A stretch of DNA of 32,000 nt from positions 2,700,001 to 2,732,000 of the forward strand of contig FP565575.1 in the NCBI GenBank assembly GCA_000091165.1, written 5' to 3'. The position numbers were made by a program, and so were the translations under genes. This document shows, in pieces, positions 1,381 to 31,221 of the stretch (the stretch's first letter is position 1; every line of letters begins with the position of its first letter). Source of the stretch: Candidatus Methylomirabilis oxygeniifera (lineage in GTDB: Bacteria > Methylomirabilota > Methylomirabilia > Methylomirabilales > Methylomirabilaceae). The notes under the pieces are model-generated. The model had not been told where the DNA came from. It made no database searches and saw only the letters and a list, made by a program, of their open reading frames with translations.

Positions 1381-1595
1381 GAGCTTTTCCGCTTTTCCTC
1401 TCGAATGGTTAGCCAGCAACCAGGAGTCACACACCCACAGTGGCTCATCGATGATCGGTTGCCTGGTTCATCTTTGTGAACAAGTCACAACTACTATTGT
1501 AGATCGTAGTCTCATAGTAGGGCAATCATATGCAAAGCGCAAGATACCTGGGAAGCGGTTGCGGCGTACGTACTCTGAGATCGCGCGGGGACCGC

Positions 1596-2504
1596 TCAAC
1601 TCGTGAACTGAAGCCGCGACAGGAGGGCATAGAGGGCAAAGTTGTAAGGCGCGTGAAGACCGTATTCGGCTGCTTTTTTTATGATAACGCCATTCAAGGC
1701 GTCATGCTCCAACGGTTTCCCCGCCTCATGGTCCTGACGCATTGATGTCTTCACGCCGTAGTGCCGGGAGAACTTGACGTTTCGTTCCCACACCTCTTCA
1801 CAAGCAAGGCTGACCCCTGACGCGTTCGCCACAGCGACAACCTCCGCCGTCACCAGCTTCGCCAGCTCAAGGGTGTGGGGATTCTCGAGAATGACCTTGA
1901 CGGGACCGCCGACCAGTGTATTGATCGCGTTAAAAGGGGCGTTCCAGGCGAGCTTCGTCCAGAGGACCGCCTGTATATTGGACGATATTTCAGCCGGAAG
2001 GCTGTAACGGTCGAAGAAGGCTTTAAGCCTGACAACCCGCTCGCTGATGCCGCCGTCGAACTCTCCGAATACGATCTTCCCGCTCTCCTGGTGAAGGACC
2101 ACCCCAGGCTCCGGCGCGCTCGCCCCGATGTAGGCCACCCCCGCCAAGACCTTCTCCTGTCCGATGAGAGACGCGATCTTTTCCTCATTGTCGATCCCAT
2201 TCTGAAGCGACAGAACGAGGGTGTCCTGCCCGACCATTGGGAGCGCCTGGCGAATAGCCGACTCGGTGTCGTACGATTTCACGCAGAAGAGAACTAAGTT
2301 GACGAGGCCAACTTCTGCAGGATCATCGGTAGCGTTGACCTGGACGGAGAAGTCCCCCTTCCAACTCTTGACCGTGAGGCCCTTCGCTCTGAGCGCCTCC
2401 AGGCGCTGCCCGCGGGCGATGAATGTGACATCGGCGCCGCCCTTGGCCAGCAGACCGCCGAAGTAGCCCCCCACCGCTCCCACCCCCACCATCGCTACCT
2501 TCAT
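1596..2504 (-). CDS. panE: 2-dehydropantoate 2-reductase (ketopantoate reductase, ApbA/PanE family)
   Basis: N-terminal dinucleotide fold MKVAMVGVGAVGGYFGGLLAKGGADVTFIARG, about 300 aa, with a PanE-like C-terminal helical domain. ATG 2504 is preceded by AGAGGT with a 6 nt spacer. The track start at 2540 lacks such support. Confidence 0.8.
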   Translation of the reverse strand: MKVAMVGVGAVGGYFGGLLAKGGADVTFIARGQRLEALRAKGLTVKSWKGDFSVQVNATDDPAEVGLVNLVLFCVKSYDTESAIRQALPMVGQDTLVLSLQNGIDNEEKIASLIGQEKVLAGVAYIGASAPEPGVVLHQESGKIVFGEFDGGISERVVRLKAFFDRYSLPAEISSNIQAVLWTKLAWNAPFNAINTLVGGPVKVILENPHTLELAKLVTAEVVAVANASGVSLACEEVWERNVKFSRHYGVKTSMRQDHEAGKPLEHDALNGVIIKKAAEYGLHAPYNFALYALLSRLQFTS

Positions 2505-28154: not shown

Positions 28155-28619
28155 ATGGCAGATGAGCGCGAGACTCATCAGAGATTCATTCGGGCAGCCT
28201 TTGAGCAGGCTCGGAAATCATACAATGAGGGTGGACTTCCGATTGGCGCCGTCATGGTAGAGAACAGCACAGTTATCGCTGTTGGTCATAACCGTCGCGT
28301 TCAAGACGGCGATCCAACCGCGCACGGGGAGATGGACTGCCTTCGGCAGGCTGGTCGGCGCCCTCGCTATGACGGCATTACGCTTTATACGACGCTGAGT
28401 CCTTGCATGATGTGCTCAGGCACCGTGCTCCAGTTTGGGATCAAGCGAGTGGTCATTGGCGAAAAGCAAAACTTCCCAGGCAATGTCGAATTGTTGCGCA
28501 ATCACGGTGTTGATGTGATTGTTCTTGATGATCCTGAGTGTATTTCGCTGATGCAGCGATTCATGCGCGAACGTCCGGATCTGTGGGACGAGGATATTGC
28601 GGGGCGAACAAACGTTTGA
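28155..28619 (+). CDS. cytosine deaminase of the CDA-fold, yeast FCY1 type (zinc deaminase)
   Basis: EGGLPIGAV, GHNRRVQDGDPTAHGEMDCL (HxE zinc site) and TLYTTLSPCMMCSGTV (PCxxC). The C-terminal FMRERPDLWDEDI parallels the FCY1 tail FIDERPQDWFEDI. GAGGGAG RBS. Confidence 0.85.
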   Translation: MADERETHQRFIRAAFEQARKSYNEGGLPIGAVMVENSTVIAVGHNRRVQDGDPTAHGEMDCLRQAGRRPRYDGITLYTTLSPCMMCSGTVLQFGIKRVVIGEKQNFPGNVELLRNHGVDVIVLDDPECISLMQRFMRERPDLWDEDIAGRTNV

Positions 28620-28856
28620 GGTATACTCAGCAAGAGGCGGAACGAATCAAGGCGGCCAGTTTTGGGGTTGTCCGAATTATCCGCGCTGTCGCGGACTCGT
28701 GAACTACGACGCCCATGGTGCAAAGTAGGCATACGTCGGGTTCGCACCACAAGGACCTTCCACTCGACGCACCAAATACGTGCGCGGATGAAGCAGAGGA
28801 CATTGGCAAGTCGACTCGAAGAGGGGTTTGTGATACGCTTTTTTCGGGAGGTTGAG

Positions 28857-28904
28857 ATGACGAAGTTGCTTCAACGAGCATTCGAGAAGGTAGTAACTTC
28901 CTAA
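28857..28904 (+). pseudogene. 15-codon stub resembling the N-terminus of an addiction-module antitoxin
   Basis: GGGAGG lies 5 nt upstream of ATG. The translation is MTKLLQRAFEKVVTS*. MxKLLxxAFExxxxLP is a common antitoxin start, and here it is cut short just before the intact TA pair. Confidence 0.3.
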
Positions 28905-28920
28905 GTCTGAGGAGGATGCC

Positions 28921-29121
28921 ATGACAACTGTCGAGTCGATTGAGCGCGCTATCGAGCAGCTTTCCCCCGACGAACTCGTCAAGTTGCGACGCTGGTTCTT
29001 GGAGTACGATGCCACCGCTTGGGATGCTCAGATCGAGGCAGATGCTGCTGCCGGAAAATTCGATGCGTTAGCTAAAGAGGCTTTAGCTGAGTATCACAGC
29101 GGTAAGGCGCGCGAGATTTGA
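28921..29121 (+). CDS. antitoxin-like small helical protein (partner of downstream ParE/RelE-like toxin)
   Basis: 66 aa, MTTVESIERAIEQLSPDELVKLRRWFLEYDATAWDAQIEADAAAGKFDAL. GAGGAGG lies 5 nt upstream. Its stop overlaps the next start. Confidence 0.65.
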   Translation: MTTVESIERAIEQLSPDELVKLRRWFLEYDATAWDAQIEADAAAGKFDALAKEALAEYHSGKAREI

Positions 29122-29378
29122 GGCATTTCACGGCGAGTCAATTCTGGCGCTGTTTCGATGCTCTGCCAACCGCCATCCAGGATCTCGCCCGACGCAACTA
29201 CGCTCTTCTCAAGCAGAATCCGACGCATCCATCCCTACAATTCAAATCCGTGTGCGGCGGACGCTTCCGTAGCGTTCGAATCGGTAATCATTACCGTGCC
29301 CTTGGGCTGCCAGTCCCAGAGGGAGTGCAGTGGTTCTGGGTCGGCCCGCACGCCGAGTACGACAAGTTCTTTAGCTAA
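29118..29378 (+). CDS. RelE/ParE-superfamily-like toxin (putative)
   Basis: 86 aa, with NPTHPSLQFKSV...RSVRIGNHYRALG...WFWVGPHAEYDKF, a pattern I associate with small ParE/RelE-like toxins. The TTG start overlaps the antitoxin stop (TTGA). Confidence 0.6.
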   Translation: MRHFTASQFWRCFDALPTAIQDLARRNYALLKQNPTHPSLQFKSVCGGRFRSVRIGNHYRALGLPVPEGVQWFWVGPHAEYDKFFS

Positions 29379-29536
29379 CACTCGGCTGGATCGGTGGAAT
29401 GGCGCGACAGCCGAGCGACAAGGACAAGCCATAAGGCCGTCTTTGGTGCGCCGGGACGAAGGATCGGAAAAATCGGAAGGGTTGGTTCTTGCGCGTATCG
29501 GTCTGCTGCGGGGGTGTTGGAATCTGAAACGACAGT

Positions 29537-29653
29537 TTATCCCAGCCAGATGAGCAGCTTGACAATGTACTTCATTGCGATCATGGACGCTAGAAACATG
29601 ACCGCCCCTAAAACTAAATTCACATTGATGTTTCGGTGCTTTTCCGGCTCCAT
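29537..29653 (-). CDS. 38-aa single-TM small protein (candidate)
   Basis: Minus-strand ATG 29653 is preceded by GAGGAAGAGG. The translation is MEPEKHRNINVNLVLGAVMFLASMIAMKYIVKLLIWLG*. It lies 46 nt downstream of the glutaredoxin-like ORF and is too short for the ORF track. Confidence 0.35.
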   Translation of the reverse strand: MEPEKHRNINVNLVLGAVMFLASMIAMKYIVKLLIWLG

Positions 29654-29699
29654 ACCTCTTCCTCACTGAGACCGACGACCGTCGGCGCCTCTAGACTGC

Positions 29700-29915
29700 T
29701 CAGGTTCCGCCAAATCCGACGGTGACTTTGCCCTTCTCGACAATAACCGGGACATCACGTGAGCCTTTCGATAACTCCAACATCTGTGCGAGCGCCTTCG
29801 GGTCCTGCTTGACATTGAGGTAGGTGAACGGGACCTTCCGCCTGGCATAGTCCTCACGGGCTGCCGAGGTATAGGGTCAGGTATCCTTCCCGTAGATGAC
29901 GACCGGTTCGTCCAT
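29700..29915 (-). CDS. glutaredoxin-like small thioredoxin-fold protein with in-frame TGA at the redox-Cys position (selenocysteine candidate)
   Basis: ATG 29915 has GGAGG 6 nt upstream. The translation is MDEPVVIYGKDT[TGA 29877-29879]PYTSAAREDYARRKVPFTYLNVKQDPKALAQMLELSKGSRDVPVIVEKGKVTVGFGGT*. It shows the Grx/NrdH/YruB-like pattern: beta1, CPYC-position motif, cis-Pro VPV, GKV.VGFGG. Confidence 0.65.
29841..29869 (-). promoter_or_regulatory. candidate bacterial SECIS hairpin downstream of the TGA
   Basis: The mRNA is CCU-C-GGCA-GCC-CGUGA-GG-A-C-UA-UGCC-AGG. About 10 bp are hand-folded, starting 8 nt after the UGA, with an apical loop CGUGA containing GU. This is hand-folded only. Confidence 0.3.
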
Positions 29916-29956
29916 CTGCCTCCTCCAATCTTTCGGGTCCGTCTGATTCCAGCGCG

Positions 29957-30301
29957 TCAGACCCGCGTCGTAAATCGTTCGGCCTCTGTGGTCAACCGCT
30001 CGTAGGCAAGCTTGATGTCGCGGATCTGCGGGTACAGCTCCTGGATCTTCTCGTGGGGGAGCGGGATGATCCGGCTCAGTTCAGTCAGCCGCTCCCCAAC
30101 CAGCTTGGCCCGTCGAAGGATATCGAGCTTTTTATCGGCCGGCGGGCTCAGCGCTGCCCCCTCCAGGAGTACAAGCATCCCGTCCTCATCTTGAGCCCGG
30201 CACAGCTCGTCCAACTGCTGCGCCTGGGTCTCATTGAGACCGCTTTCCCGCAGGGCATTCAACGCCTTCATCCGGTCGATTCGATAGCGGATGTCGAGCA
30301 T
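29957..30301 (-). CDS. hypothetical helical protein (114 aa), first gene of the module
   Basis: AAGGAG lies 6 nt upstream of ATG 30301. The sequence is coding-like (MLDIRYRIDRMKALNALRESGLNETQAQQLDELCRAQDEDG...). I recognise no domain. Confidence 0.55.
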   Translation of the reverse strand: MLDIRYRIDRMKALNALRESGLNETQAQQLDELCRAQDEDGMLVLLEGAALSPPADKKLDILRRAKLVGERLTELSRIIPLPHEKIQELYPQIRDIKLAYERLTTEAERFTTRV

Positions 30302-30425
30302 TCTCTCTCCTTACGCGCGCGCCGTGGATGTATCAGGCGCAATCCGGCACTATCTCACACCTCTGCGCCAAAGCCGAATGCAGGGGGTCGGGTGTGAGTC
30401 TATCATCTGACTCTATGGCCACTCT

Positions 30426-30454
30426 ATATCAGCAGAATTTCGACGTCTTGTCAA
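30426..30454 (-). promoter_or_regulatory. candidate sigma70 promoter (TTGACA-17 nt-TGATAT) for the minus-strand module
   Basis: On the minus strand TTGACA is at 30454-30449 and TGATAT at 30431-30426, with exactly 17 nt between them. It is about 120 nt upstream of ATG 30301. Confidence 0.4.
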
Positions 30455-30555
30455 CGGTCATGTGGTCTTTTCATCCCGCGTGGTCGCTATCCGGCCATGA
30501 TATGATGTGTTATCATAATGTACTACGGGATAGCGAAGGAGGAATCGGACCCGAC

Positions 30556-31221
30556 ATGAAATTCCCATTTGCCCTTGACCGCCTGGCTGCGCAAGATATT
30601 CGAATGATTTTTCGCGTCGTCGCAGAGTTCGTCGACGGGTTGGAGGCGCTCGCCGCGATTCCGCCGGCTGTCTCTGTCTTCGGATCGACGCATATCGGAC
30701 GAGATGATCCCGCCTACATGATGGCCGAACAGATCGGCCGCTTGTTGGCCAAGCACGGGTATGCCGTCATCACGGGCGGGGGTCCTGGAGCCATGGAGGC
30801 GGCGAATAAAGGCGCCTACGAGGCGGGTGGTGTATCGGTCGGCCTCAACATTGAGCTTCCTCAGCAGCAGGCACCGAACCCATACCTGACCAACCTTGTA
30901 AATTTCCAGCACTTCTTCGTCCGGAAGGTCATGTTCGTGAAGCACTCCATCGCGTTCGTCATCCTGCCGGGCGGCTTTGGCACCCTGGATGAGCTGTTTG
31001 AGTCGATTACACTGATCCAGACCAGGAAGATCAAGCCGTTTCCGGTCATCCTGACAGACGACGATTACTGGCGCGGTTTACAGGAGTGGCTCCGTGATAC
31101 TGTTATGAGCGAGGGGAAGATCTCGCCGGACGACCTCGCGCTACTCAAGGTGGCTCATAGCCCTGAAGAGGTCATCCAGGTCATCAAGAACTCCTCAACC
31201 TCCAATTCTCTGACCCTCTGA
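30556..31221 (+). CDS. LOG-family protein (TIGR00730; cytokinin riboside 5'-monophosphate phosphoribohydrolase-like)
   Basis: VSVFGSTHIG, GGGPGAMEAANKGA and the PGGFGTLDELFE motif. ATG 30556 (MKFPFALDRL) is preferred. The 76 upstream codons of the track ORF lie in the promoter region. Confidence 0.85.
   Translation: MKFPFALDRLAAQDIRMIFRVVAEFVDGLEALAAIPPAVSVFGSTHIGRDDPAYMMAEQIGRLLAKHGYAVITGGGPGAMEAANKGAYEAGGVSVGLNIELPQQQAPNPYLTNLVNFQHFFVRKVMFVKHSIAFVILPGGFGTLDELFESITLIQTRKIKPFPVILTDDDYWRGLQEWLRDTVMSEGKISPDDLALLKVAHSPEEVIQVIKNSSTSNSLTL

Follow-up and report, generated by a model that had tools for sequence, protein, structure and literature searches.

UXX-star family 1 proteins (NCBIfam NF041114) have a glutaredoxin (Grx) fold of about 70 amino acids (aa), a (U/C)PYT active site and a GFGG(T/S)-U-x-x-stop tail. 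In a 2026 review the family is listed, with its two selenocysteine (Sec, U) residues, as 'Distant Grx-like protein 1' (PMC13188914). No function or partner of UXX-star proteins is given in the literature searched. A gene for such a protein was found in a 32,000-nucleotide (nt) stretch of the genome of Candidatus Methylomirabilis oxyfera (GenBank contig FP565575.1, positions 2,700,001 to 2,732,000; hereafter the window, in whose own numbering coordinates are given). There it is the second of three minus-strand genes, preceded by a gene for a 114-aa helical protein (gene 1) and followed by a gene for a 38-aa membrane peptide (gene 3). The three genes form a real, conserved operon-like arrangement, and the locus is that of a known selenoprotein family within a lineage-specific operon whose other members are uncharacterised. 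What is new is the lineage-specific pairing of a UXX-star gene with genes for a helical protein and a very small membrane peptide, both uncharacterised. No description of either the gene 1 family or the peptide in association with a UXX-star gene was found in the literature searched, which did not cover Haft & Tolstoy 2025 (mSystems), and searches combining Methylomirabilis with glutaredoxin, selenoprotein or selenocysteine returned nothing on this locus.

Gene 2 (29691..29915, minus strand) was delimited by its translation, by its matches to NF041114 and Pfam PF00462, and by the conservation of its UGA codons. It has 74 codons, with Sec at codons 13 (UGA at 29879-29877) and 72 (UGA at 29702-29700), and the true stop is the TAG at 29693-29691. 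The product reads MDEPVVIYGKDT-U-PYTSAAR...VTVGFGGT-U-AV-stop, in which Sec13 lies in the context T-U-P-Y-T (codons 12-16) and Sec72 in the context GG-T-U-A-V-stop. With U entered as C, the protein matched the NCBIfam model "UXX-star selenoprotein family 1" over its full length (model 1-70/70) with 124.7 bits against a cutoff of 72 (E = 1.3e-36). The parent subfamily NF041212 (Uxx_star) was also matched, as was the Pfam Glutaredoxin domain PF00462 (44.5 bits, cutoff 22.9). The U-x-x-star signature is present as TGA GCA GTC TAG at 29702-29691, and the same layout was found in the 35 loci that reach the tail (30 unique sequences) in the form U-A-V, U-S-V or U-E-V, with U-G-V in members from other phyla. 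The glutaredoxin fold is accompanied by the (U/C)xxT motif, and Cys forms with CPYT occur among the homologues. Gene 2 is almost certainly a UXX-star double selenoprotein, to judge from its sequence and that of its relatives; it is a fresh member of an already curated family, and the family itself is not new.

The first-pass annotation of this DNA had recognised gene 2 as encoding a Sec-containing glutaredoxin-like protein, had ended it at 29700 and had assigned the locus to no described system. The Sec reading has held. What was taken for the end, 29702-29700, proves to be another in-frame TGA, with GCA GTC TAG after it, so that the second Sec, the hallmark of the family, had been overlooked; and gene 2 is a full-length member of NF041114. 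The existing M. oxyfera record misses or truncates the gene, and reading it as one Sec plus a stop is wrong. Another form of misannotation was seen in a 73-aa JGI protein (P0096) in which Trp is translated at both UGA positions (TWPYT...GGTW), evidently an artefact of a UGA=Trp code that hides a double selenoprotein. Other assignments of gene 2 were tried and rejected. The classical dithiol glutaredoxin model GRX_bact (TIGR02181) scored 42.5 against a cutoff of 90 and aligned over only 1-55 of 80 positions. NrdH (TIGR02194) scored 27.5 against a cutoff of 85.75, the second active-site position is Thr and the chain stops five residues past the GG motif. The score for the YruB model was also far below its curated cutoff. 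By sequence, the nearest relative of solved structure is an 84-aa 'Glutaredoxin' (PDB 7c10/7c12). None of the three module proteins was matched in PADLOC or PHROG.

Comparison of the loci supports Sec at both positions. Protein conservation spans both sides of both UGAs in every locus long enough to be read, as (T/S)-U-PYT and GG(T/S)-U-(A/S/E)-V-stop. Codon 13 is UGA in 36 of 37 loci, the sole exception being L056 (loci are cited by L number), which has Cys (TGT) here and retains the second UGA. All Methylomirabilota loci long enough to include the C-terminal UGA (35 of 37) have kept it. Homologues from other phyla carry CPYT, and their database entries end at ...GFGGT; the DNA of three of these loci (L008-L010) continues with TGA GGx GTx stop.

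Each UGA is followed by a candidate selenocysteine insertion sequence (SECIS). Putative SECIS 1 (29844..29865, minus strand; GGCA..CC-GUGA-GG..UGCC) lies within the coding sequence and begins 11 nt past the first UGA. Local RNAalifold analysis of 27 unique sequences gave the consensus GGCR..CC-GNGA-GG..YGCC, and at two synonymous third positions the pairs covary, A-U changing to G-C. Putative SECIS 2 (29671..29686, minus strand; GCCGAC-GGUC-GUCGGU), identified by folding and covariation, lies 13 nt after the second UGA, past the stop codon and before the Shine-Dalgarno (SD) sequence of gene 3. Its GGUC loop is invariant among 30 unique sequences, and its stem shows compensatory changes to GCCAAC/GUUGGC (4 of 30 unique sequences, plus L056) and to GCUAAC/GUUAGC (L040). 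In L009, from another phylum, the hairpin after the UGA has a different stem and the same GGUC loop. The invariant loop and the compensatory stem changes are good support for SECIS 2. The locus would be a clean natural case of a bacterial SECIS that lies past the true stop codon and overlaps the translation-initiation region of the next cistron. Since a Methylomirabilota metagenome-assembled genome with 63 predicted selenoprotein genes has been reported (PMC13188914), Sec machinery is expected in the lineage. A tRNA scan of the window found no tRNA, hence tRNA-Sec is not encoded there, and an Rfam scan of the whole window gave no match at the gathering threshold.

Seven genome loci, 32 metagenome loci and one further locus were gathered, and 37 of them were informative for the adjacency of genes 1 and 2. 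Gene 1 is followed by the UXX-star gene in 37/37, all from Methylomirabilota and down to 64% identity, usually with a spacing of 40-44 nt. The uninformative contigs end inside gene 1, and in L039 gene 1 is disrupted by an insertion. The first-pass annotation had put forward all three genes as one unit that should be syntenic elsewhere. Synteny was borne out for genes 1 and 2 in every informative locus and for all three genes in 16/16 loci of the closer clade (gene 1 at least about 75% identical to that of the window). As a unit of three the module is not general, since the divergent Methylomirabilota clade lacks the peptide. Because the small open reading frame (ORF) is lacking in this clade, whose gene 1 identity is 64-72%, the comparison indicates that the robust unit is the gene pair, to which the peptide was added at the level of the genus. 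Purifying selection acts on all three genes, with ratios of nonsynonymous to synonymous polymorphism (pN/pS) of 0.28 for gene 1, 0.15 for gene 2 and 0.49 for gene 3, the least constrained.

Two kinds of interruption were observed among these loci. In L039 (58-1114), gene 1 is broken past residue 69 or so by foreign DNA carrying an ORF of the excisionase/AlpA-like helix-turn-helix type, the result of either a mobile-element insertion or a chimeric assembly. In six loci of one subclade, 210-230 nt are inserted between genes 1 and 2, and both genes and their order are kept (L028:3343-3558, L029:615-845, L033:1824-2054, L034:565-776, L035:1257-1487 and L036:3229-3444). The insert has terminal inverted repeats (GTGCCGGTCCAA...TTGGACCGGCAG) and sits exactly between gene 1 and the selenoprotein gene. 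That of L033 folds as a long hairpin of about 145 nt (-110.6 kcal/mol, z = -2.7) and gave no Rfam match at E <= 1. By its sequence features the insert looks like a miniature inverted-repeat transposable element or a repetitive extragenic palindromic element.

Gene 1 (29957..30301, minus strand; CBE70222.1) was studied through its ORF, homologues, alignments and an AlphaFold2 model. It encodes an acidic (isoelectric point 5.9), soluble, cytoplasmic protein of 114 aa, which is annotated as "hypothetical" in the M. oxyfera genome with exactly the same sequence. It had at first been described as all-helical and lacking a recognised domain, and structure prediction agreed: the model, built from a 32-sequence alignment, is confidently all-alpha, with six helices (predicted local distance difference test score 88.7, predicted template-modelling score 0.79), and has no family or fold match. 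Pfam, NCBIfam, PHROG and PADLOC gave no match to gene 1, Foldseek with the model found nothing at E < 1 in PDB or BFVD, and the sole match of a gene 1 profile to PDB sequences was rejected as a coiled-coil repeat artefact. Gene 1 is an orphan family.

Homologues of gene 1 number 283. The 77 close ones are 64-96% identical and nearly all 114-115 aa long, and wherever the organism name is informative, it is Methylomirabilis or Methylomirabilota; L001, which is 93% identical in gene 1, is labelled Patescibacteria and was taken as a binning error. R10, P80, H83 and Y90 are invariant, an IPLPH motif is present and, of the eleven N-terminal residues, ten are invariant in a 33-sequence alignment and I8 is nearly so. 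Together with the IPLPH motif, the conserved N-terminus and the invariant Arg, His and Tyr suggest a surface for specific binding. Searching 1.84 billion representative proteins with a profile yielded distant relatives, 105-118 aa long and 28-42% identical. In these R10, P80, H83 and Y90 are again invariant and E39, G41, A65, I86 and R94 nearly so. The alignments contain no conserved Cys, and the gene 1 protein is therefore not a classical disulfide-exchange substrate of the selenoprotein.

Gene 3 (29537..29653, minus strand) encodes a 38-aa single-pass membrane peptide (grand average of hydropathy 0.82), charged at the N-terminus and hydrophobic in its core, whose C-terminus, KLLIWLG, is conserved. 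It had been thought invisible to a standard ORF caller, which is wrong for this ORF: with an exactly matching sequence it is already annotated as CBE70220.1, 'exported protein of unknown function'. In the 16/16 closer-clade loci the peptide has 36-38 aa, differing by an in-frame indel of two codons, and the ATG, the SD and the stop position are conserved in the 16 loci, which were found by tblastn. Whether the small ORF shows coding-type conservation had been raised as a check, and it does: the frame is open in all 16, and the two alternative frames are closed in 11/14 and 14/14 unique sequences. In the 64-72% clade no locus has gene 3, and no conserved, diverged small membrane ORF was found there, whether downstream of the selenoprotein gene or in the insert between genes 1 and 2. 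Past the selenoprotein gene, these loci have a stretch with no conserved ORF and then a convergent MEMO-like gene.

The three minus-strand starts proposed at 30301, 29915 and 29653 were confirmed, as was the claim that each ORF has an SD of its own. Purine-rich SD sequences precede all three: AAGGAGAG at 30312-30305 for gene 1, GGAGGAGG ahead of 29915 for gene 2 and GAGG/AGAGG at 29664-29655 for gene 3. The gap of 41 nt given for genes 1 and 2 is correct; that between genes 2 and 3 is 37 nt and not 46. The picture of a co-linear, tightly spaced module is supported by these signals and by the lack of any terminator predicted between the genes, and on this layout the three genes are probably co-transcribed.

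Two promoter-like elements precede gene 1 on the minus strand. The distal element, P1 (30426..30454), was read directly and followed in relatives. It consists of TTGACA (30454-30449, a perfect -35), a spacer of 17 nt and TGATAT (30431-30426), with a TG one base upstream of the -10. Its position and sequence had been given correctly in the first-pass annotation, which graded it near-consensus; this grade is too high, as the -10 agrees with TATAAT at only 3/6 positions. P1 is kept in eight loci (the window, L001-L004, L012, L017 and L018) and is absent from other clades. The proximal element, P2 (30342..30371; TTGGCG-18 nt-CCGGAT), emerged from an alignment of 36 upstream regions. Its consensus in all clades is (T/C)TGGC(A/G)-N18-TAnnAT, about 45 nt before the gene 1 ATG, and the -10 is TATAAT, TACAAT, TATGAT or TAAGAT in many relatives and the degenerate CCGGAT in the window. 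A strict consensus scan of 29300-30600 called neither promoter and no intrinsic terminator; for P1 the reason is that its -10 fits the consensus at just those three positions. Judged by these sequences, the operon may be driven by P1, by P2 or by both. The conserved TGGCA...GC element was also considered as a sigma-54 site, a reading rejected by eye because in no clade is the GG-to-GC spacing 10 nt. In L025 and L026, the conserved promoter-like element, about 60 nt upstream of gene 1, holds the perfect palindrome TGGCAT-CCC-ATGCCA, which overlaps the -35, and related partial palindromes occur in other clades (e.g. TTGGCGCCAA). The palindrome at the -35 may be an operator. On the other side of the module, about 100 nt 3' of gene 3 (29440..29536, minus strand) are kept in the closer clade regardless of the gene that follows. 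The region is C-rich and G-poor, with a C/G ratio of 2.18 (within the module G exceeds C), and may be a rut-like region of Rho-dependent termination or a 3'-untranslated-region element.

The first-pass annotation had placed the module in an accessory-looking patch tied to toxin-antitoxin (TA) genes. Its neighbours are instead conserved genes, Nth-LOG on one side and HAD on the other. In the closer clade the upstream pair, Nth and a LOG-family gene, is conserved, and a HAD hydrolase gene follows directly downstream in L004, L006 and L013. In the window, the space between the module and the HAD gene is occupied by a variable insertion (28155-29378, plus strand) that comprises genes for a dCMP/cytidine-type deaminase (28155-28619), a 66-aa antitoxin (28921-29121) and a ParE-like toxin (29118-29378). 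The toxin and antitoxin genes stand beside the module only in the window, L002 and L012, and the deaminase gene only in the window and L012, with a short match of 72% identity in L017. Because the TA pair is present in three loci and the deaminase in two, these genes are a neighbouring insertion in a few relatives, beside what is, on the comparison of flanks, a core chromosomal locus and not an accessory one. A TA or anti-phage reading of the module was rejected, given the absence of PADLOC and PHROG matches, the occurrence of the TA pair in just three loci and the HAD gene directly next to the module in others. In the same insertion, a 43-aa ORF at 28597-28728 (plus strand) has a weak match, below the Pfam cutoff, to a topoisomerase-type zinc ribbon. 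At the equivalent position L056 has a full restriction-endonuclease-like gene of 258 aa with Mrr_cat and Zn_ribbon_Top1 domains (1489-2265, minus strand), and the 43-aa ORF may be a remnant of such a gene.

The explanation that best accounts for the locus as a whole, with about an even chance of being right, is a core operon that joins a Sec-based mini-glutaredoxin to a helical partner. Transcription from P2 and/or P1 would run through the three closely spaced cistrons, each translated from its own SD. Translation of gene 2 would need recoding by SelB and tRNA-Sec at two UGAs, with one hairpin per UGA. In the predicted protein U-P-Y-T replaces C-P-Y-C, so that there would be no resolving Cys. 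In classical glutaredoxins the glutathione site is lined, next to the active-site Cys, by the Gly-Gly motif. The gene 2 chain ends five residues past its Gly-Gly motif; with no resolving Cys and a chain that ends there, Sec72 is placed to reach Sec13. By analogy with known glutaredoxin structures, Sec13 and Sec72 could be joined within the molecule by a diselenide bond (by a selenenylsulfide in Cys13 forms), a proposal for the redox centre that has a fair amount to recommend it and falls short of being probable. The diselenide would give a two-electron redox centre or shuttle of very low potential, in which the Sec tail stands in for the glutathione or second Cys of ordinary glutaredoxins. The gene 1 protein would act as a lineage-specific, non-thiol partner of the selenoprotein, as adaptor, scaffold or regulator; that genes 1 and 2 are functional partners is a tentative proposal drawn from the comparative data, with a little less than an even chance. 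The 36-38-aa peptide would be a later addition at the genus level that may hold the pair at the membrane or modulate it there.

Several observations weigh against this explanation. The hairpin after the first UGA folds no better as a single sequence than its shuffled versions (z = 0.3 and -0.1), for which reason the support for SECIS 1 is moderate. The flanking synteny is also largely conserved within each clade, and therefore the adjacency of genes 1 and 2 could partly reflect common descent. Their pairing is restricted to one lineage. Outside it, on three independent contigs, UXX-star family 1 genes (Cys13 forms) of other phyla adjoin genes for ThyX and a 4HBT thioesterase, and no homologue of gene 1 was found near the UXX-star genes of these contigs. 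Conversely, distant gene 1 homologues (X) occur in the contexts RtcB(-archease) -> X -> Zn-dependent alcohol dehydrogenase, LutB/LutC -> X and Peptidase_M24 -> X, and no Grx-like frame was found adjacent to them, even when TGA-interrupted frames in unannotated gaps were allowed for. The proposal in the first-pass annotation of the module as a general unit thus fails outside the lineage, where the UXX-star gene and the helical family were never adjacent in the loci examined. The two families are thus independent, and their coupling is specific to the Methylomirabilis-related clade. Finally, it has been suggested that the Sec residues of UXX-star proteins may act as metal-binding ligands rather than in redox cycling (PMC13188914).

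Further details of these outside loci were recorded. In those from other phyla (L008:2585-3210, L009:3001-5329 and L010:951-3207) the ThyX protein is unusually long (about 530-546 aa), and a NUDIX gene and a peptide deformylase gene lie nearby in two of the three. Distant homologues of 109 aa, from genomes labelled NC10 (L044:1528-4443, L045 and L049:1523-4361), are closely flanked by their neighbours in the order RtcB(-archease) -> X -> Zn-alcohol-dehydrogenase. At the end of the L049 locus, 2.9 kb downstream of X, begins a U-form Grx-like frame, MADAVLIFGKDT*PFTTAAREDY.

The alternative that survives best is that the genes are neighbours by descent only, gene 2 being a stand-alone gene with which gene 1 and the small ORF merely share a transcript or a position. 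The independent occurrence of both families elsewhere is consistent with it, as are the origin of all 37 loci from one lineage with largely syntenic flanks and the dispensability of the small ORF in the divergent clade. It is nevertheless rather unlikely. The adjacency, order and spacing of about 41-44 nt last to 64% protein identity, and the pair persists across the repeat insertion and where the flanks differ (GGDEF or MEMO-like genes in L007, LOG and HAD in the window). Moreover, neither gene occurs without the other in any locus, bar L039 with its disrupted gene 1.

A second alternative is metal or metalloid handling, in which the Sec13 and Sec72 selenolates would chelate a soft metal or metalloid such as Hg, As, Cu or Se, and the helical protein and the peptide would pass the ligand on or export it. 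Here the metal-ligand suggestion of the review (PMC13188914) would apply directly, the second active-site Cys is replaced by Thr, and the partner has an invariant His (His83, besides Tyr90 and Arg10). On the other hand, the conserved neighbourhood (LOG, Nth, HAD) contains no metal transporter, MerR/ArsR regulator or resistance gene, and the fold and the position of the active site are of the thiol-disulfide oxidoreductase type. This role is unlikely.

It is more improbable still that the 38-aa ORF is non-functional, or is only a translated spacer or a type-I-toxin-like element unrelated to the selenoprotein. Such a view would fit its position as the least constrained of the three genes (pN/pS 0.49), its absence in the divergent clade and its lack of a family match; it is opposed by the frame that stays open in 16/16 loci with ATG, SD and stop position kept, an in-frame indel and closed alternative frames, and by the conserved hydrophobicity and KLLIWLG C-terminus. 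That the UGAs are true stops and the Grx-like frame a decayed pseudogene, of which a standard ORF caller sees just a 27-aa fragment, is effectively refuted by the comparative data, namely protein conservation across both UGAs in 37 loci with a pN/pS of 0.15, the curated-family match, the Sec/Cys pairs and the covarying SECIS hairpin.

A bolder extension of the core-operon explanation is that the IPLPH helical protein and the double-Sec UXX-star protein form an undescribed, NC10-specific selenium redox or metalloid couple, joined in Methylomirabilis by the membrane peptide and possibly tied to the nitrite-/NO-dependent intra-aerobic lifestyle. This is a speculative proposal with little chance of being correct in full; if true, UXX-star proteins would have their first identified physiological partner in the helical protein. 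In any case, a partner gene adjacent in all 37 loci provides a testable hypothesis on the target of the double-selenocysteine mini-glutaredoxins. The reach of the finding is modest, given a selenoprotein family that was known already and a partnership limited to one lineage. It will be of use to selenoprotein specialists and to annotators of Methylomirabilis genomes, and on present evidence it is not a new kind of system.

In comparison with known systems, the gene 2 protein itself is no different from the other members of UXX-star family 1, with which it shares the fold, active site, tail and two Sec. The difference lies in the genomic partners, which are the 114-aa protein upstream and the peptide downstream here and 4HBT/ThyX elsewhere. 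With the NrdH/YruB-type and CPYC glutaredoxins (PDB 7c10, 7c12) it has in common the fold, an active site at the N-terminus of helix 1, the cis-Pro region (VPVI) and the GG motif; unlike them, it has Thr for the second Cys and ends past GG with a Sec tail. A more distant likeness is to mammalian thioredoxin reductase, which carries a redox-active Sec on a C-terminal GCUG tail, and to SelL, with its UxxU diselenide-type centre. By analogy, the gene 2 protein would resemble such selenoproteins in having a Sec near the extreme C-terminus able to shuttle electrons with a buried active site, and two Sec in a small redox domain. The folds and domain contexts are unrelated, gene 2 encoding a stand-alone Grx fold of 74 aa for which the diselenide is inferred. 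CydX, KdpF and AcrZ are small single-pass membrane peptides encoded at the ends of operons. Gene 3 appears similar to them in its size of about 30-40 aa, its one transmembrane helix, its own SD and its co-linear genes; it differs from them in having no sequence relationship to any of the three and in belonging to an operon that encodes no membrane complex.

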